The notes under the pieces were generated by a model that searched no databases, was not told the DNA's origin, and saw nothing but the letters and a program-made list of their open reading frames with translations. From Armatimonadota bacterium (GTDB lineage Bacteria; Vulcanimicrobiota; JACPDS01; JBDRKI01): a stretch of 64,000 nt of DNA. Positions 35,490 to 44,117 of the stretch are shown here, piece after piece (positions within the stretch are counted from its first letter, which is position 1; each line of letters opens with the position of its first letter). Where the stretch lies: assembly GCA_043814095.1 (NCBI GenBank), contig JBDRKI010000054.1, positions 1 to 64,000 on the forward strand, given 5' to 3'. Both the position numbers and the translations under genes were made by a program.

Positions 35490-35963
35490 TCAACACACGG
35501 TACTCTCTTTTAAACTTAATTTCCTTAACTTCACACCGGCTTCATGGTAAAGGTTTTTAACCGCATCTGAAACAGGATATTCATCGCTGTAAATAACTTC
35601 CTTTATACCCGCGTTTATTATCATTTTCGTACACATAAGACACGGTGAAAAAGTGGAATACAATATGGAATCTTTTATGCTGACACCGTGATAAGCCGCC
35701 TGGGTTATGGCGTTTTCTTCCGCGTGCGAGCACAGGCATTCATCAAGCGCCGAACCCGAAGGAGCCATGCTGTTGCATCTGGGGCATCCCCCCTCATCAC
35801 AGTTTCTCGTGCCTCTCGGCGTTCCGTTATAGCCTGTTGAAATAATTCTCTTGTCTTTTATTATTACGGCGGCAACCTGCCTTTTCATGCAGTTGGAGCG
35901 TTCCGCCACTACCTTTGCTATATTTATAAAATATTCGTCCCATGAAGGCCTTTTTTTGATCAT
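35490..35963 (-). CDS. dCMP deaminase family protein
   Basis: RPSWDEYF, GYNG, HAEENAI, PCLMC. Confidence 0.95.
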   Translation of the reverse strand: MIKKRPSWDEYFINIAKVVAERSNCMKRQVAAVIIKDKRIISTGYNGTPRGTRNCDEGGCPRCNSMAPSGSALDECLCSHAEENAITQAAYHGVSIKDSILYSTFSPCLMCTKMIINAGIKEVIYSDEYPVSDAVKNLYHEAGVKLRKLSLKESTVC

Positions 35964-36508
35964 AATTTCTTCCCCGTTAAAAAATAATCTATTTTTTTAT
36001 AAAGCTCTTCTAATCCCGAGTTATTTTCTATGACATGATCCGCGAGCTCTATTGTTTTATCTACCTGCTGTTTAACCGGATCTGTATTATTAATTTCCCT
36101 TTTCTCATACGCCGTAAATTCCTCAAAGCTAACGGCATCTCCCTGCCTGTGGCGGCTGCACATTCTTTCATGCCTTATTTTATCATCCGCCCTTATCTCC
36201 ACCAGGGTAAAGTTATCAATACTTCTTAACGAAGCCACTTCCGCGGGGTTTCTTATGGAATCTATAACATAATCTTTATCTTTATTAATCTTGCTCAGAA
36301 GCCGGTCGGCAAGAACAGACGGCCCGAAATCGCCTCTGAGCTTATTGCCCATCTGTATAAGAGTTTCCCTTGATTCGGGAATATTCCGCAGGCTTAATTC
36401 CTCCCTTATCTCATCAGAAAGGGAATAGTATATAAAACCTTTTTTCTTCAGGTATTCGGCAAGCTCGCCCTTACCCGAACAGTTCCTGCCGGTTATGCCT
36501 ATAACCAT
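35960..36508 (-). CDS. P-loop nucleotide kinase (dephospho-CoA/dNMP kinase-like)
   Basis: GITGRNCSGKG, DSIRNPAE; coupled to dCMP deaminase. Confidence 0.8.
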   Translation of the reverse strand: MVIGITGRNCSGKGELAEYLKKKGFIYYSLSDEIREELSLRNIPESRETLIQMGNKLRGDFGPSVLADRLLSKINKDKDYVIDSIRNPAEVASLRSIDNFTLVEIRADDKIRHERMCSRHRQGDAVSFEEFTAYEKREINNTDPVKQQVDKTIELADHVIENNSGLEELYKKIDYFLTGKKL

Positions 36509-36514
36509 AAATAC

Positions 36515-37102
36515 CTACCAATTTTCACATAAAATTTCATAATAATCCCGGGGATGATCGCATGCGGGGCAGACAAGAGGCGCTTCGGCTCCTTCATATA
36601 CATACCCGCAGTTACCGCATCTCCATTTTACGGATTGCGTTTTCTTAAACACCGTATTCTTTTCTATATTAGCAAGAAAAGCTCTGTATCTTTTCTCGTG
36701 CTGTTTTTCCGCGACGGATACGGCTTTAAAAACATCCGCTATTTCCTTAAATCCTTCTTCTTCGGCGGTTTTCGCGAATTCCGCGTAAAGGGTAGTCCAT
36801 TCAAGGTTTTCACCGTCCGCGGCTTCTTTTAAATTTTCCGCGGTTCTTCCTATAACGCCAGCGGGGAATGCGGCGGTAATCTCAACTTCACCGCCTTCTA
36901 AAAATTTAAAGAATCTTTTCGCGTGCTCTTTCTCGTTATCGGCTGTTTCGGTAAATATATTGGAAATCTGAATATACCCTTCTTTTTTCGCCTGTGAGGC
37001 AAAATAAGTGTAGCGGTTCCGGGCCTGGGATTCACCCGAGAAAGCTTTGAGAAGATTCTGTTCTGTTTTTGTGCCCTTTAATGACTTCACTTTTACCTCC
37101 AT
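36515..37102 (-). CDS. rbr: Rubrerythrin
   Basis: [18 protein letters not shown]-terminal CGNC/CPAC. Confidence 0.96.
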
Positions 37103-37104
37103 TA

Positions 37105-37614
37105 TTATGCTCCTGCGGAAAGATGTATTTTTCTTTTGGCAAGCTCTTTGTCTGTAATAGCAATACCGGCGTCTTCTTCGCCGTTTCTGTTTATCATCTC
37201 TATAACTTCCGAGGCGGACTCTTCTTCTTCTACCTGCTCTTTAACAAACCAGTCTAAGAATTTTCTTGTTTCTATGTCCTGTTCCTCATCCGCAAGCTTA
37301 ACCAGGTCATTTATAAGGCCGGTAACTTTCTGTTCGTGCTTATATACCTCTTCAAACACATTTAAGGGTGAAGACCACTGCGCCTGGGGAGCGGGAATTT
37401 CCATCATTATGGCCCTGTAATCATTTTGCGCAAGATAATCGTAAATTTTCATGGCATGGGTAAGTTCCTCATAAAACTGCGCGCGCAAAAAATGCGAGAA
37501 GCCTTTCAACTTCATTGAATCAAGATACGCGGCCATAGCCAGATAAAGATAAGCCGAATAAAGCTCCCGGTTAATCTGCTTATTTAAAGCCTGTCCCATT
37601 TTTTCTTTTAACAT
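37105..37614 (-). CDS. ftn: Non-heme ferritin
   Basis: [34 protein letters not shown]. Confidence 0.95.
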
Positions 37615-37646
37615 AATAGCCTCCTGTTTTTTTTAAAAAAAATAAT

Positions 37647-37808
37647 TTATTCCTGTTCTGTGAACAGATCTTTCGTTGCCCCGCACACGGGACAAACCCA
37701 GTCCGCGGGAAGCTCGCTAAAAGGCGTTCCCTCGGGTATATCGCTCTCGGGATCACCCAGTGTAGGATCATACACGTAACCGCATATGGAACATACATAC
37801 TTTCCCAT
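37647..37808 (-). CDS. Rubredoxin (53 aa; not in ORF track)
   Basis: Manual translation [15 protein letters not shown]...[18 protein letters not shown]. Confidence 0.95.
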
Positions 37809-37811
37809 ATT

Positions 37812-38324
37812 CTATCCCTCCTTATTGATATAGGTTGGCGCCGTTTTCGGGGAAGTTCCCCTTTTCACTTCATGGTAATAAGCATAAGTCATGGGTTCTT
37901 CGCTGTTTAATATTTCGCCTTCTGCTACTTCTGCTAAAAATACGGTATGAGAACCCGCGTCAAAACTGTTTACAACCTTTGCTTCTATATATCCTATTAC
38001 ATTGTCTAAAACTATCGGGGAACCCGTACTCCCTATTTTATAATTTACATCTTTGAATTTATCGGTATCTCTTCCTGACTTGAACCCGAACTGCCCTATT
38101 AATTTTAAGGGGGCTTCTTTTGAAAGAACAGACACGGAGAAAACTTTGCTTTCTTTTATATACTCATGAGTTAAATTCTGTTTGTTTATGCTTGCGGCTA
38201 TAGCCTGCGGCTCTGAGGTTATCTGCATAACAGCGTTCGCCGTCTGAGCATTTATTTTACCGTCACTTACAGAACCCACAATATACATGCCGTAGCTTAT
38301 CTTATGCAGAACGCTGGAATCCAT
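37812..38324 (-). CDS. Flavin reductase-like (flavoredoxin) protein
   Basis: ISYGMYIV, FGFKSGRDTDKF, GSHTVF, PMTYAYYH; start at MDSS. Confidence 0.9.
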   Translation of the reverse strand: MDSSVLHKISYGMYIVGSVSDGKINAQTANAVMQITSEPQAIAASINKQNLTHEYIKESKVFSVSVLSKEAPLKLIGQFGFKSGRDTDKFKDVNYKIGSTGSPIVLDNVIGYIEAKVVNSFDAGSHTVFLAEVAEGEILNSEEPMTYAYYHEVKRGTSPKTAPTYINKEG

Positions 38325-38328
38325 AAAT

Positions 38329-39879
38329 TTACTCCTTACTCTTAGCTCGGCGCGGGCAAGGTTTGTCCCCGTCCCCGCACGGATGCCCGCATTCGGTAAA
38401 GGTGCTTTCCTCTGACTTATCTGTTTTAATTTCCTTATTTTTATCAAGATAGTTCCTTATCGCATTATGCAGGGCGTCAGTGCCCAGGTTGGAGCAGTGC
38501 ATCTTCTGCGGGGGAAGCCCTCCCAGGGCTTTCGCTATTTCATCTTTTGTTATCTTAAGAGCTTCTTCTATTGTTTTTCCTATTGCCATCTCCGAAACTA
38601 TTGAAGAGACGGCAATAGCGGCGCCGCAATTATGCACCGCAAATCCTTTCACAAGATATGTATTTGGTTCAAAAGCAACCTGAAAATTATATACTTTCCC
38701 AAAGTAGGATTTTGTATCAATTTTTTTAACAGGAACTAAAAAATAACTATCCTTTGAATGAACAAACCTATGCTTCCTGTCTAATTTAAATGATATTAAA
38801 AATTGGTGCGAATCGGATAATTTTCTTCCTTCTATAACACAGTTCTTCTTCCAAATTTCCCTTATTGAAGCAAAAATTTTTCCCCTCGCAAGAATTTGCT
38901 GCATCTGCATCGCTAAAATTTCGGATGTAGTAGTAACTCTATAAGTCTCGCTGTCCGTGCCCCTTCTTTTATATTTATCTCCGTCTCCAAGCAAATAAGT
39001 TTTAAACATTTCCCATTGTTTTGCAAACGGCAAATAAAGAACATCTCGCGATAATTTTTTGGCTTTGGCATATTTTCCGCAATGTTCAATTAAAAAATCT
39101 GCCAATTTTCTGCTACATACATAGACTTCAGAAACATTGTTTCGTATGCGTTCTTGGGCTTTCTTTTTTGTACAATAAAATATTAGATTCTTTGTTTCAT
39201 TTATCAATTTTTTTTCTGTTTTATTAAACGAAAAACATACTACACTATTATTTGCACTCATATATCCTTCTGACAAATAATAACCCAAAAGCCGCATTAG
39301 TTTTAAATCAAAAGATTTAATATCTTTAGTTTGGATATTATAGCCATAAATCAAATAATCTCCTTTTTCTACATCCTTTGCCGGAATAAAATCAGGTTTT
39401 TGCAATAATAGATTCTTATGTTTTACTCTTAACCATTTACATTTTTTACTGGAATAACGAGCCCCCTTCACCCATTCTCTTTTAATGCACAATACGGGAT
39501 GATTTGCAGTTAGAGAAAATGCGTTATAAGGTGAAACAAAAGGCAACATTCTAAGTAACTTGCCTTTAAATTTGCTTTCATAAGTTTCCGCAACAAATGT
39601 AGTTTTTCCCAAAGAATTGATAACTTTGTCGCCCTTTTCTATCTTATTTATCTGCTGCAAGCCGACTGGATTTGTTATCACCTTTTCCGATGCCGGAAGA
39701 CATCCGAAGGTTTTAAATTTCACGTCATCAAGCTTACCGTCTTTTACTTTTATGTAAAATGTCATTATATCCCCGCACTGGGGATTCCCTACTTCACCCA
39801 CGCCGTCCGCGCCGGGTATTTCCCCCACATTTCTGGGGTTCTGGAAATGATCCATAACTTTATCCGAATAAAAAGACAT
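38329..39879 (-). CDS. iscU: Fe-S scaffold IscU/NifU-N interrupted by an intein
   Basis: HFQNPRNVG, NPQCGD, KFKTFG|intein|CGAAIA, LPPQKMHCSNL. Confidence 0.93.
   Translation of the reverse strand: MSFYSDKVMDHFQNPRNVGEIPGADGVGEVGNPQCGDIMTFYIKVKDGKLDDVKFKTFGCLPASEKVITNPVGLQQINKIEKGDKVINSLGKTTFVAETYESKFKGKLLRMLPFVSPYNAFSLTANHPVLCIKREWVKGARYSSKKCKWLRVKHKNLLLQKPDFIPAKDVEKGDYLIYGYNIQTKDIKSFDLKLMRLLGYYLSEGYMSANNSVVCFSFNKTEKKLINETKNLIFYCTKKKAQERIRNNVSEVYVCSRKLADFLIEHCGKYAKAKKLSRDVLYLPFAKQWEMFKTYLLGDGDKYKRRGTDSETYRVTTTSEILAMQMQQILARGKIFASIREIWKKNCVIEGRKLSDSHQFLISFKLDRKHRFVHSKDSYFLVPVKKIDTKSYFGKVYNFQVAFEPNTYLVKGFAVHNCGAAIAVSSIVSEMAIGKTIEEALKITKDEIAKALGGLPPQKMHCSNLGTDALHNAIRNYLDKNKEIKTDKSEESTFTECGHPCGDGDKPCPRRAKSKE
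38629..39702 (-). mobile_element. Intein (358 aa) with LAGLIDADG homing endonuclease
   Basis: Starts CLPASE, block B LTANHPVL, LLGYYLSEG and YLLGDG motifs, block F VYNFQV, ends VHN before Cys+1. Confidence 0.95.
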
Positions 39880-39882
39880 ATA

Positions 39883-41307
39883 TTAAATCTCCTTCTCGCC
39901 TATCGCTTTTTCTTCCTTATTCAGGAAAATCATCTTTACCGGCTTGCCTTTATCGTCATAAACGTATTTTATTATTGCCGCGCCCGACGACCTTAACTCT
40001 TTAAGTTTTCTGTCAGAACCGAAAAACCTTGCTTCGGTTATATCGCCTTTATCGTCATAAACGCATGTCATAACGGCAAAACCCAGATCGGGTCTTTCCT
40101 TAAGCGCCTCGTCGGCGCCGAAAAATTCCACCTGCGTTATGTTCCCGTTTTTATCGTATTCCCACTTCTGCCGGGCGACCCCGCAGAGAGCGTCTTCTTT
40201 TAATTTATCATCAGAGCCGAAATACCTTTCTTCTATTTTATTCCCGGCTTTATCGTACTTTGACCTTATAACGGCGTAGCCGGTATTTTTGTTTTCCTTC
40301 AGCTTTTTATCAACTCCCAAAAATTTCTTTTCTATCTCATTGCCGTCTTTATCGTACAGGGTAGCAACCACCGCGGCGCCGGTAACCTCGTCTTCTTTTA
40401 AGCCGCCTTTTTCATCAAGAGCCGAAACTTCCGTAAGATTGCCGAACTGGTCATATTTGCAAACCATGCCGGCGGAACCGTGAATCTTATCAAGCTTGGG
40501 CTTCCCGTCAGCGCCGAAATATTTAACTTCCACGACATTGCCGTTAGCATCGTATTTAACCCGCATTACTGCAACCCCGTAAACGGTATCTTCTTTTGGT
40601 TTGTTATTTTCGTCATAATAACTTGTTTCAATTTTATTACCGTATTTATCATATTTATAGGACTGTCTGGCAATGCCGATCTGGATATTTTCTTTTAATT
40701 TTTTATCCATGCCCAGATATCTTACTTCTTTTATGTTGCCGTCATTATCATAATTATATTCAAGCTCATATAAGCCGTTCTTGTCTATTATCCTGTTCCC
40801 GGAGGGGTCCATCCTTACGGATTTTATCCTGCGCCCGTCTTTATCGGTTATATAAAAATACTGGGCAACACCGTACCTGTCTTTTATTATTCCGCCGTTT
40901 TTGTCATGATTGGCTACAAGAAGCTTATGCTTGACAGGATCCCTTTTTATGGTAAGAAAATACACGCCGTCGGAATTATAAACCGGACTGTCGCTTGAAT
41001 CCAGATATATCCACTTCTCTTCTGCGGGAGAATATTCTATCTTTATACAGGCAGCTCCGAATTTCAGATCCGGCCTCGGCTTGCCGTTGTGAAAATAGTT
41101 AATTTTTACGGGTTTTCCTTCTTCATTAAATGCAATTTCATAACATCCTGTTTTGGAGGCCGTATTTTCATCAACCTCATATTTTCCTTTAAGTTCATAC
41201 TTATCATCTATATACAACTGCCGGTAATGCCCCGAAGAGGCGTAAGCCGTACTTATAAAACACAAAAAAACCGTTATAATTAATACCGTAAAAAGTATTT
41301 TTTTCAT
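39883..41307 (-). CDS. Secreted protein with ~33-aa YD-like tandem repeats
   Basis: Signal peptide ending AYA; repeats YDK.GN..E..Y/FFG.D.KLKE....G.A. Confidence 0.8.
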   Translation of the reverse strand: MKKILFTVLIITVFLCFISTAYASSGHYRQLYIDDKYELKGKYEVDENTASKTGCYEIAFNEEGKPVKINYFHNGKPRPDLKFGAACIKIEYSPAEEKWIYLDSSDSPVYNSDGVYFLTIKRDPVKHKLLVANHDKNGGIIKDRYGVAQYFYITDKDGRRIKSVRMDPSGNRIIDKNGLYELEYNYDNDGNIKEVRYLGMDKKLKENIQIGIARQSYKYDKYGNKIETSYYDENNKPKEDTVYGVAVMRVKYDANGNVVEVKYFGADGKPKLDKIHGSAGMVCKYDQFGNLTEVSALDEKGGLKEDEVTGAAVVATLYDKDGNEIEKKFLGVDKKLKENKNTGYAVIRSKYDKAGNKIEERYFGSDDKLKEDALCGVARQKWEYDKNGNITQVEFFGADEALKERPDLGFAVMTCVYDDKGDITEARFFGSDRKLKELRSSGAAIIKYVYDDKGKPVKMIFLNKEEKAIGEKEI

Positions 41308-41331
41308 AAAATCCTCGCTTCGCGGATTTTG

Positions 41332-41568
41332 CTATATCCCGAGCTCATGGGATATAGCTTCTTTATTAAAGCCCACGATCAATTTACCGTCTACATCTAT
41401 AACGGGCACAGCGCGCTGGTTTGATTTTTCAATCATCTCCCTGGCGGCTTCCCGATCCGAAGAAACATCTTTATTTTCAAAATCAATATTGTTCCGGCTT
41501 AAAAATTCCTTGGCCATTATACAGTAAGGGCATGTAGGGGTCGTATAAATCTTAACTTTTTTAGACAT
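41332..41568 (-). CDS. Glutaredoxin-like protein (NrdH/YruB type)
   Basis: CPYC, VPVI. Confidence 0.92.
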   Translation of the reverse strand: MSKKVKIYTTPTCPYCIMAKEFLSRNNIDFENKDVSSDREAAREMIEKSNQRAVPVIDVDGKLIVGFNKEAISHELGI

Positions 41569-41590
41569 ATTTACACCTCTGCCTTTATTT

Positions 41591-42004
41591 TTATATCTGG
41601 ACCTCGCTCATCCATCTGCCGTGAACATTGCAGAACTCAATAACCGTAAATTTTCCGCTTTCAACCTTAAGATGGATTGAAAGCTCCGGATTTAAAGCAG
41701 CACCCGGTGCCATATGGTATCTTGCCATGAATTTATAATCATGGTAGATATCTATATATACTATATAGTGCTTTTCTTCCATAACATGTATAATTTCGCC
41801 TATTTTTATCTGAGCATCAGTCTTAAAGTCTATAACCGGTATATGCTTCTTATCTCCTTCGGTTAAATTATCCGGATCTGCGGGTTTTTTAAAAGCATCC
41901 GGGGTCAGAACAAAACTTTCCTTTCTCGCCCCGCATACCGGACACTTTTCGGGCACTTCACCAAAAACGGCATGACCGCATACCTTGCATACAAAAATAT
42001 CCAT
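41591..42004 (-). CDS. Superoxide reductase/desulfoferrodoxin-like protein with N-terminal rubredoxin-like domain
   Basis: CKVCG..CPVCG; KKHIP, HVMEEKHYI, CNVHG. Confidence 0.85.
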   Translation of the reverse strand: MDIFVCKVCGHAVFGEVPEKCPVCGARKESFVLTPDAFKKPADPDNLTEGDKKHIPVIDFKTDAQIKIGEIIHVMEEKHYIVYIDIYHDYKFMARYHMAPGAALNPELSIHLKVESGKFTVIEFCNVHGRWMSEVQI

Positions 42005-42016
42005 AACAATATCTCC

Positions 42017-42199
42017 TTAGATTATTATCGCAACAACCGGGCATTCCTCTGCTGCCTGCCTGCAGCAATCTTCAAGCTCCTTAGGAACCGCATCTAAGCG
42101 GACCACCGCCCTGTTGCCCTCTATCTCAAACATTTCGGGACATATAGAGACACATGTCCTGCATCCCACACATTTTATCCAGTCAACCTTTGCGCGCAT
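42017..42199 (-). CDS. Single-cluster ferredoxin
   Basis: CVGCRTCVSICP...CPV.AI. Confidence 0.9.
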   Translation of the reverse strand: MRAKVDWIKCVGCRTCVSICPEMFEIEGNRAVVRLDAVPKELEDCCRQAAEECPVVAIII

Positions 42200-42214
42200 A
42201 AAAGTGTCTCCTTC

Positions 42215-42373
42215 CTACATCTTTTCAAACATGTCTTTGCCGACCCCGCACACGGGATAAACCCAGTCATCGGGGAGACTCTCAAAAGCCGTGCCCGGAC
42301 TAACTCCGTTATCAGGATCCCCTATCTCAGGGTCATACACATACTGGCATACCGTACATAAATATTTGTCCAT
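42215..42373 (-). CDS. Rubredoxin (52 aa; not in ORF track) with Cys39->Tyr
   Basis: Manual translation [60 protein letters not shown]. Confidence 0.9.
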
Positions 42374-42393
42374 TTTCCCTCCTGGTATATTTT

Positions 42394-43608
42394 TTATCGT
42401 TTTTGCATTTCGTAAGTTTTATTTTTTACATTCTCCGCGAAATTCTTCCCGAATTCATAACATTTTTCAAGTTCGTTCCGGTCCGGAACATACTGCAGGC
42501 CTAATGAGGGCTGTATAATCTCTATTCCGGCAATTTTTAAAAATTCTTCTATTTGCTTCACCGCTCCCCCTGCCCATCCGTAAGAACCGAATGATGCTCC
42601 TATTCTATTTTTTGGCTTAAAGCCCTTTACAAGCTCCAAAAATCCCGCAAGATTAGGGAGCATGTTGTTATCATGGGTTGACGAACCGGCAATATACCCT
42701 CGACTTAAAAGCATATCCTTTATTACTTCCGTCCTGTCGGAAACATTTATATCGTAAAGCTTTACGCTTACCCCCGCGGCGGTTATGCCTTCTACTATTT
42801 TATCGGCCATCTTCTTTGTGGCGCCCCACATTGTTTCATAAATAACCACGATATTTTCCCGGGGGTTGTTTTCAGCCCATCCGGCATACGCGTTTATTAT
42901 CTTTAACGGATCTGCTCTCCATATAATGCCATGGCTCGGGGCAATCATCTTTATAGGGATGTTTAATTTCTTAATCTCCTCTATTTTCCTTAAAACAAGA
43001 CCGCTGAAAGGCCATAAAATATTAGCGTAATACTTTACCGCTTCCTCCATTAATGCGCCCTGGTCAACCTCATTATCAAATCTTCCGGATGAAGCATAAT
43101 GCTGGCCGAACGCGTCATTGGGAAAGAGTATCTGGTCTTCGGCAATGTATGTAAACATGCTGTCAGGCCAGTGAAGCATTGGGGCTTCAATAAAGGTAAG
43201 GTTTCTTTTTCCTAAATTTAACTTATCTGCGGATTTTACGATATTAAAATCCCAGTCTTTAAAATAATGTTTATACAGGCCTTCTTTGCATTTCGCCGTG
43301 CAGAAAATTTTCGCGCCGGGACAGTGCTCCATAATATGGGGGAGCGCTCCCGAGTGATCGTCTTCAACATGGTTCGCGACAACATAATCTATTTTTGAAG
43401 GGTCAACCACCTGCCTTATACTATCAATGAGCTTTTCTTTAAAACCCGCGTGCACGCCGTCTATCAATGTAATTTTTTCATCCATAATTAAATATGAATT
43501 ATATGTAGTGCCCCTTCTTGTAGTATAGGTATGTCCGTGAAAGTTCCTTATATTCCAGTCAACAGCCCCTACCCAGTAAACATTTTCCGCTATTTTTACA
43601 GCTGACAT
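42394..43608 (-). CDS. fprA: Flavodiiron protein (FprA family)
   Basis: GTTYNSY, NHVEDDH, HWPDSM, DAFGQH, GSYGW flavodoxin domain. Confidence 0.95.
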
Positions 43609-43638: not shown

Positions 43639-44037
43639 TTATAAACATTTTTTGCATATGCCTTTGAAGTAGCCGTGAATCTCTTCTATTTTATTTCCTT
43701 CTATCGCCTTCTTCTTAATATGGGGACACGGTATATCTATATCTATTATCTTTCCGCACTTTTTACATAAAAAATGATGGTGGGTTAATGTATCAGGATC
43801 GTACCTTGCCTCATCGGCGGTTATAGTCAATTCATTTATAATATTATTTTCAGCAAATGTATTAAGAGTATTGTAGATAGTGGTTTTTGAAATACCCGGT
43901 ATCTGTTTTAATATATCATTATATATTCTGTCTGCCGTAGGGTGATCTTTTCTTCCCGTAATGTTCTTAAGGATAATACACCTCTGGTAGGAATAACTTA
44001 TCCCTTTTGATTCCATAAGCTCTTTTAGGTCTTTCAC
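43639..44037 (-). CDS. Fur/PerR family transcriptional regulator
   Basis: HPTAD, TIYNTL, HHHFLC..C, C..C; heads the oxidative-stress operon. Confidence 0.92.
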   Translation of the reverse strand: MKDLKELMESKGISYSYQRCIILKNITGRKDHPTADRIYNDILKQIPGISKTTIYNTLNTFAENNIINELTITADEARYDPDTLTHHHFLCKKCGKIIDIDIPCPHIKKKAIEGNKIEEIHGYFKGICKKCL

Positions 44038-44053: not shown

Positions 44054-44117
44054 TTGCAATGATTGCAATATTGTAACGATTACAAATTTATTATACCTAC
44101 ACATCTAGTTTTGTCAA
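44054..44117 (-). promoter_or_regulatory. Sigma70 promoter with two tandem palindromic operators (putative PerR boxes)
   Basis: TTGACA (44112-44117) - 16 bp - TATAAT (44090-44095) on minus strand; TTGCAA-TGA-TTGCAA 44054-44068 and TTGTAA-CGA-TTACAA 44071-44085. Confidence 0.8.

Follow-up and report, generated by a model that had tools for sequence, protein, structure and literature searches.

The closest described relative of the element analysed here is the well-studied intein of SufB (the Pps1 intein), in iron-sulfur (Fe-S) cluster biogenesis. A 2022 paper gives the Mycobacterium tuberculosis SufB precursor as 846 amino acids (aa; 252 + 359 + 235), with a conserved His at position -5, and a review credits the SufB intein with sensing oxidative and nitrosative stress. 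Review text also describes the catalytic Cys of the Pyrococcus abyssi MoaA and Pol II inteins as being trapped in a disulfide under oxidising conditions. A homologue of the SufB intein is described here in a different Fe-S protein. In the window, meaning the whole 64,000-nucleotide (nt) stretch analysed (contig JBDRKI010000054.1 of an Armatimonadota bacterium, assembly GCA_043814095.1), a homing-endonuclease intein splits a scaffold gene of the NifU/IscU type precisely at the position of a cluster-binding cysteine, as the original prediction, made from the sequence alone, had observed. The intein is mechanistically canonical and a sister allele of the SufB intein; this NifU allele is apparently undescribed in the literature, its sequences being already public under plain scaffold names.

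The positions of the gene and its parts are collected in Table 1. The intein lies between Gly59 and Cys418 of the precursor, with the junctions reading ..KFKTFG/CLPASE.. upstream and ..GFAVHN/CGAAIA.. downstream (slashes mark splice points), and its removal would leave a predicted product of 158 aa (exteins of 59 + 99 aa), the size originally proposed. A Pfam scan of the 516-aa protein recovered NifU_N as two stretches (152.7 bits) and LAGLIDADG_3 at 40.6 bits against a cut-off of 22.5, while the top NCBIfam model, TIGR03419 (NifU_clost), fell just short of its cut-off (185.6 against 187.9 bits), its match being broken in two by the intein. The exteins align contiguously, from end to end, with the Archaeoglobus fulgidus IscU/NifU-1 chain 4eb5_C (E = 2.8e-48), aa 4-59 corresponding to its residues 2-57. 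Cys418 aligns with residue 58 of this chain, and with residue 63 of both 7c8m_A and 2z7e_A, all solved IscU/NifU chains, and occupies the second of the three conserved cysteine positions. The second conserved Cys of IscU serves as a cluster ligand. Hence the alignment on solved chains bears out the claim that the +1 nucleophile of the intein is itself the second conserved cluster-binding Cys. The U-type ligand set is complete in the exteins (Cys35, Asp37, Cys418, His461 and Cys462), and Cys35 and Asp37 are kept in all 120 homologues, which are the best 120 database clusters from a search of clustered proteins. The intein-less alleles of relatives read ..KFKTFGCGAAIA.. uninterrupted at the insertion point, and relative to these orthologues and to the solved IscU chains the insertion is precise and in-frame.

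The window gene therefore resembles the minimal NifS-NifU scaffolds, such as that of A. fulgidus, in that its exteins align with them and keep all ligand positions. It differs from them in carrying an intein, in having no adjacent nifS, and in its Cys-rich C-terminal tail. This tail (aa 484-516; window positions 38332-38430, minus strand) has a C-x3-C-x6-C arrangement and is predicted to be disordered (pLDDT <50). A double zinc ribbon occupies the same position in the same-order relative and in several intein-bearing homologues, and the tail may be a remnant of such a ribbon.

Table 1. Positions of the features discussed; coordinates are those of the window unless another contig (C) or locus (L) is named.
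Feature	Position	Strand	Basis or remarks
nifU/iscU-type scaffold precursor	38329..39879	-	516 codons + stop, single open frame
N-extein, aa 1-59	39703..39879	-	carries first ligand Cys35 and Asp37
Intein, aa 60-417, 358 aa	38629..39702	-	HINT splicing domain (predicted) with nested LAGLIDADG endonuclease
Cys1 codon (block A nucleophile, C60)	39700..39702	-	Cys in 120/120 homologues
Block B (..LTANHPVL..), T124 and H127	39490..39522	-	T and H in 120/120 homologues
First LAGLIDADG motif (..LLGYYLSEGY..), acidic E204	39259..39297	-	E in 118/120; Pfam LAGLIDADG_3
Second LAGLIDADG motif (..YLLGDGDK..), acidic D299	38974..39003	-	D in 117/120
Block F (..VYNFQV..), Asn398	38674..38700	-	N in 120/120 NifU homologues
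Block G (..GFAVHN) and the +1 Cys418 codon	38626..38649	-	H416, N417 and C418 in 120/120
C-extein, aa 418-516, 99 aa	38332..38628	-	+1 Cys (second ligand), His461/Cys462, Cys-rich disordered tail aa 484-516
Fur-family regulator	43639..44037	-	Pfam FUR; best matches PerR models (NF052545 PerR, 8.8e-27), all below cut-offs
Sigma-70-like promoter pattern	44090..44117	-	12/12 hexamer positions, upstream of the PerR-like gene; pattern match only
Co-directional cluster	36515..43608	-	Pfam/NCBIfam assignments of genes downstream of the regulator
Site-a NifU intein of Methanomassiliicoccales	L008:5989-7611	+	likewise L007, L009, L013, L030, L034
Further inteins and free-standing LAGLIDADG open reading frame	C102:129001-129525, C109:585-980, C55:57970-59031, C36:109174-109740		

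Every residue expected of a class-1 intein is present (Cys60, Thr124, His127, His416, Asn417 and Cys418), as are both acidic residues of the endonuclease (Glu204 and Asp299), with the conservation given in Table 1. The 120 clusters, which all combine NifU_N with LAGLIDADG_3 and are 51-70% identical to the window protein, were the best from a search of 5.8 billion clustered proteins in which 8000 candidates were scored and 1308 matched at E<=1e-5. Their shared architecture and splicing residues, found in 120/120, place the intein anatomy far beyond chance. Length is similarly regular, at 356-360 aa across 108 family members (extracted by regular expression from 150 proteins). In an AlphaFold2 model built from a 20-sequence alignment and including the exteins (mean pLDDT 88.2, pTM 0.83, with disorder confined to the C-terminal tail), the intein has a predicted HINT fold, and Foldseek matched it to endonuclease-bearing inteins (TliVMA 7qsu at 9.2e-20, then PI-SceI 1vde, PI-PfuI 1dq3 and PI-PkoII 2cw7, down to 2.7e-11), as well as to I-DmoI-type endonucleases. 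As the exteins form part of the query model, the query-normalised TM of these matches is only about 0.45; the exteins themselves superpose on IscU 4eb5_C with a TM of 0.86 (normalised to the target) and an rmsd of 1.4. The likeness to the solved endonuclease inteins is thus one of predicted fold, a HINT domain with a nested LAGLIDADG endonuclease, whereas sequence identity is 9-17% and the hosts differ (V-ATPase, ribonucleotide reductase and DNA polymerase); PI-PkoII is the only match by sequence in the PDB (4.3e-07). Taken together, this is a genuine class-1 intein that is most likely splicing-competent. Block F contains Asn (VYN) where many inteins have Asp, and this Asn, invariant in the NifU family at this site (hereafter NifU-b) and in the aligned SufB inteins, appears to be a marker of the clade. 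A divergent NifU-b representative, P0165 (583 aa), has an intein that apparently opens with Ser rather than Cys (..RTFG/SL..), the boundary being read from the HMMER alignment alone.

The SufB intein had been invoked as a precedent, and it proved closer than was then thought. An exhaustive HMMER search of 1.84 billion representatives returned 3368 matches at E<=0.001, 1029 at 1e-10 and 32 at 1e-30, and by Pfam 22 of the top matches comprised 2 NifU, 10 SufB (one via SufBD_N only), 2 PFOR beta subunits, 1 Pyr_redox_2, 1 glycosyltransferase, and 6 without a detected host family. Among the longer proteins matching the intein at E<=1e-10 (n=35), there were 22 SufB, 11 NifU with two inteins, and 2 with other or unknown hosts. 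SufB inteins are homologous in both splicing halves and the endonuclease, with 27-43% identity over 100% of the NifU intein; for environmental SufB inteins the identity is 35-43%, with E down to 4e-68. Their lengths are also alike, at 358 aa for NifU, 356-357 aa for the SufB inteins of two metagenome-assembled genomes (MAGs), and 359 aa for that of M. tuberculosis in the 2022 paper. The supplement of that paper allowed a by-eye motif comparison, in which the M. tuberculosis intein had the same start, block B, GYYL.EG, GDG, VYN and GFAVHN. Across 11 SufB inteins aligned with that of the window, the shared invariant positions extend from Gly-1 and Cys1 over both endonuclease motifs to ..YLVKGF.VHN/C; NifU and SufB inteins have in common the Gly at -1, a Cys1-Leu-Pro start, block B, GYYL.EG/GDG, the VYN of block F and a GFAVHN/C end. 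Complete reading of two SufB genes, at loci L144 and L164, places the intein between ..EG and CTAP... The SufB +1 Cys aligns with Cys254 of Escherichia coli SufB (5awf_A), the residue named as the initial persulfide acceptor in a 2026 preprint. The +1 Cys thus has a role in sulfur or cluster handling in NifU and SufB alike.

The host proteins, NifU/IscU and SufB, are nevertheless non-homologous, and the NifU-b and SufB inteins form reciprocally separate clades. As the host is NifU, in a genome without a SUFBD_core match, the NifU-b intein is a sister allele of the SufB-Cys254 (Pps1) intein, rather than a member of it. In a FastTree phylogeny (LG+gamma; 127 inteins, 357 columns, rooted on the ribonucleotide reductase intein of this same genome), NifU-b (22 sequences) had a support of 0.996, SufB (95 sequences) 0.845, and their sister relation 0.845. 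A second tree of 96 sequences, including a random 30 of the 95 SufB inteins and 34 representatives from other hosts, joined NifU-b to two divergent NifU representatives (0.887), joined these to one PFOR-beta intein (0.962), and placed the resulting group as sister to all SufB inteins (0.997). Judged from these sequences, the NifU-b family is probably sister to one PFOR-beta intein, and the two together to the SufB-Cys254 inteins, including that of M. tuberculosis type. The PFOR/OFOR beta-subunit intein (P0157, 640 aa; also P0171) reads ..SGIG/C..HN/CGS.., and its +1 Cys aligns with Cys46 of 5b46_B, which we take to be a [4Fe-4S] ligand, a literature search having given no confirmation. This sister relation of NifU, PFOR-beta and SufB inteins would clearly exemplify the movement of a single intein lineage among host genes that are not homologous. 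Likeness of the target-site DNA was considered as a cause of the jump between NifU and SufB and rejected, with 14-18 of 48 positions identical.

The NifU-b family extends across both domains. Few of the best 120 clusters had named members (Omnitrophica and Thermoplasmatales), but scanning the family alignment against species-representative genomes recovered 30 loci with the same NifU allele (L108-L137). Their carriers are bacteria of the Omnitrophota, Caldiserica, Clostridia, Planctomycetia and Aerophobetes, Patescibacteria (Gribaldobacteria, Nealsonbacteria and Saccharibacteria), and archaea of the Thermoplasmatales, Methanobacteriota, Aenigmatarchaeota, Nanoarchaeota, Woesearchaeota, Pacearchaeota and Iainarchaeum. 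The window intein is sister to the copy in a Caldiserica MAG, within a bacterial group of the intein tree that is rich in Omnitrophota. The original prediction had called IscU an uncommon host protein, and this stands for the literature searched but not for the databases, where the allele recurs in the 120 best clusters and, across both domains, in 30 MAG loci. Literature searches, assessed on titles and abstracts, found no paper on a NifU or IscU intein, at this site or otherwise, nor any on inteins in Omnitrophica or in candidate phyla; neither the main text of the Novikova 2016 survey nor its supplement file 2, the parts available, names NifU or IscU. Intein-bearing nifU genes are currently annotated as 'scaffold protein' or 'hypothetical', and the matches here included no NCBIfam model for a NifU with an intein, although 'exception' models of that kind exist for inteins in some other hosts.

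Inteins also occur at a second site in NifU. The 11 double-intein proteins (624-650 aa; P0063, P0094, P0096, P0101, P0105, P0110, P0122-P0126; loci L117 and L127) have a mini-intein at the first ligand Cys (GNPV/C..HN/CGD), which is 151 aa in both loci where it was extracted (L117 and L127), and a full-size intein at the second. Hence two of the three ligand cysteines are +1 nucleophiles. NifU of the Methanomassiliicoccales instead carries its LAGLIDADG intein (371-380 aa) at site a, the first ligand Cys, and has an intact second site. The possibility that these site-a inteins belong to the NifU-b lineage was rejected, since in the wider tree they fall apart from it, alongside inteins of a Pyr_redox_2 host among others.

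Within the phylum of the window genome, an intein-only query matched 0/400 other genomes at E<=1e-10, in a sample spanning 20 families and 115 other genera. The nifU gene itself was matched in 37 of 40 relatives (1 from the same order, 39 from the same phylum), with the two extein halves abutting and no match covering the intein body, and at the DNA level the uninterrupted site in 7 relatives, a candidate target of the endonuclease, was identical to the window flanks at 30-39 of 48 nt. From the absence across the phylum, we infer that the window's lineage gained the intein horizontally, and thereby the direction of transfer.

The scaffold it entered appears to be the only one of its kind in the genome (2.5 Mb, 129 contigs, 98.97% complete). 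The genome's only NifU_N matches are the two halves of the intein-bearing gene, and neither SUFBD_core, which was detected in 14/14 control genomes, nor an A-type carrier was found in it. Cysteine desulfurase (nifS) is represented by one strong Aminotran_5 match (3.6e-87; C48:72300-73391), not adjacent to nifU, and one Nfu-type carrier lies on the same contig (C48:66692-66889), without nifU beside it. With no SufB/D and no second NifU in the genome, all U-type scaffold must come from splicing. Lack of SUF is common nearby: of 30 relatives, 14 had SUF, whereas none was found in the other 16, which include the closest ones. SUFBD_core was not found in 10/10 other genomes carrying NifU-b, the completeness of which is not given, and the intein-bearing gene was the sole NifU_N in 3 of 5 of these. 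Therefore the intein typically resides in its host's only scaffold, where splicing must work. If splicing is required for any U-type scaffold to be made, Fe-S biogenesis here depends on a mobile element, and the same dependence would hold in the 10 other carriers checked, in which SufB/D were not found. Three further inteins were noted in the window genome, with hosts read by eye as an FtsH-like protease, a UDP-glucose-dehydrogenase-like protein and a ribonucleotide-reductase-like protein (the last with LAGLIDADG), together with a free-standing 240-aa open reading frame (ORF) with two LAGLIDADG motifs (Table 1).

The setting of nifU within the window was also as first described, namely a tightly packed oxidative-stress cluster of PerR type. 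Behind the PerR-like regulator follow genes for a flavodiiron protein, ferredoxin, desulfoferrodoxin, a YruB-type glutaredoxin-like protein, a secreted YD-repeat protein, nifU, flavin reductase, ferritin and rubrerythrin, the last with its equivalog model above the cut-off, and all genes from 44037 down to 36515 are on the minus strand. The nifU ATG stands 3 nt past the preceding stop, with AAGGAG upstream, and 4 nt separate the nifU stop from the flavin reductase ATG at 38324. Hence 'peroxide/oxygen-stress operon' is a fair description of this putative operon. Rfam and transfer RNA scans of the window found nothing. In the 30 other NifU-b loci, of which several are short with incomplete flanks, no homologue of the PerR-like regulator, flavodiiron protein (FprA), desulfoferrodoxin, glutaredoxin, flavin reductase, ferritin or rubrerythrin was detected at E<=1e-8, and ferredoxin had a single match; the same absence of stress-gene homologues extended to all 86 loci compared. 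Instead, nifS is within the locus in 19 of the 30, mostly directly upstream of nifU. Among 7 phylum relatives, nifU adjoins nifS in 3 and lies elsewhere in the others, with 0/7 inside such a stress cluster. The stress context is therefore a property of this genome, not of the intein, and nifU appears to have been relocated into the cluster in this genome.

These data are very probably explained by a selfish homing intein, horizontally acquired, most likely splicing-competent and with an intact double-motif endonuclease, lodged in the genome's only U-type scaffold. After translation, Cys60 (Cys1) would undergo an N-S acyl shift, Cys418 (+1) would attack the thioester, Asn417 would cyclise, and an S-N shift would restore the peptide bond, to yield a scaffold of 158 aa with Cys418 as its second cluster ligand. 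The freed intein would then cut intein-less nifU alleles site-specifically, and such homing activity would explain the patchy, cross-domain spread of the family. By exploiting an essential and highly conserved insertion site, the intein has to splice efficiently. Several points weigh against this explanation. Splicing of the NifU precursor, and cleavage of intein-less nifU by the endonuclease, are both activities that we infer from conserved residues and a predicted fold. The Pfam Intein_splicing match is below threshold (19.4 bits against a cut-off of 35.8), and the block-F Asn, found clade-wide, replaces the commoner Asp. Both trees were made with FastTree with one outgroup each, the second with a subsample of SufB inteins, and an assembly of 129 contigs could leave a second nifU or a SUF operon unassembled. 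At 0.32, the intein is poorer in G+C than its exteins (0.44 and 0.49), but this was rejected as a sign of recent transfer, as intein G+C was below extein G+C in 21/21 other loci. The low Intein_splicing score and the unusual Asn are also what would favour a degenerate intein, unable to splice and leaving a dead scaffold gene, but this is very improbable, as the frame is open across 516 codons, every catalytic residue is present and kept in 120/120 relatives, the Asn is invariant in the NifU family and in the aligned SufB inteins, and the VYN motif recurs in the M. tuberculosis SufB intein, which the 2022 paper treats as splicing; furthermore, the genome gave no match to SufB/D or to another U-type scaffold. 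That the contig is a chimera joining an intein to nifU, as a metagenome-style assembly in 129 contigs might produce, is more improbable still. The same architecture and junctions recur in the 120 best independent clusters, and a 151-nt contig from a public DNA sequencing run, which may itself be the source sample, equals positions 39669-39819 without differences, bridging the junction of the N-extein and intein.

The original prediction had also raised the idea that splicing acts as an adaptive redox or metal switch. By analogy with other inteins, stress would oxidise or metal-load Cys1 and/or Cys+1, splicing would pause, and the scaffold would be withheld until conditions became reducing, with expression from the PerR-type operon adding a second, transcriptional layer of control. 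Both nucleophiles are Cys, the +1 Cys doubles as a cluster ligand and has further ligand cysteines nearby, the genome yielded no scaffold but this one, and nifU is tightly packed among PerR-like, rubrerythrin, ferritin and flavodiiron genes. To these can be added the homology to SufB inteins, and the disulfide trapping of other archaeal inteins described in review text. The likeness to the P. abyssi inteins is one of possible mechanism only, in an anaerobe and an oxygen-sensitive host protein; those inteins lack the sole-scaffold context, and a disulfide would be proposed here by analogy. Homology to SufB, the sole scaffold and the operon raise its standing, whereas the patchy distribution, conserved endonuclease and non-conserved context lower it. 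The stress cluster is specific to this genome, being absent from the 30 other NifU-b loci and 7 phylum relatives, and the host lineage manages without the intein, which is absent from 400/400 sampled phylum relatives. Conserved endonuclease residues fit ongoing selfish homing better than a domesticated switch, and the oxidant sensitivity of Cys/Cys inteins in vitro would not alone be proof of a benefit to the host. We therefore regard an adaptive switch as unlikely. A broader form of the idea is that the lineage is specialised on iron- or sulfur-handling cysteines, the +1 residue being the second ligand in NifU/IscU, Cys254 in SufB and, with a presumed ligand role, Cys46 in PFOR-beta. Oxidation or metal occupancy of the +1 thiol in the precursor would then gate all de novo Fe-S assembly in SUF-less anaerobes, of which the window organism is one, and the PerR-type operon with its ferritin and rubrerythrin would here be a second layer of control; this must be considered slightly less likely again. 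Alongside the SufB intein, the NifU allele would provide another system, from outside pathogens, in which to study redox or metal responses of inteins in Fe-S assembly proteins, and one where the +1 nucleophile is itself a metal ligand.

In public data, groundwater runs cover only small shares of an 8.8-kb stretch, in short and shallow contigs, and within this sparse coverage no read contig joins the exteins across the intein; two listed joints were disregarded, having sides of only 22-24 nt. Contigs from an RNA library, a kind of library that can contain DNA, lie at 38334-38485 and 38987-39275. Directly upstream of nifU, at 39883-41307 on the minus strand, is the 474-aa YD/RHS-type repeat protein with a signal-peptide-like N-terminus, an odd member of the operon. 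At 35490-36508, also on the minus strand, two ORFs overlap by 4 nt, one of them P-loop kinase-like (182 aa) and the other a zinc deaminase (157 aa). The kinase ORF matches the N-terminal half of the NCBIfam 'anti-phage dCTP deaminase' model, below its cut-off, and the two ORFs may be either a split form of such a protein or an ordinary dCMP deaminase pair.

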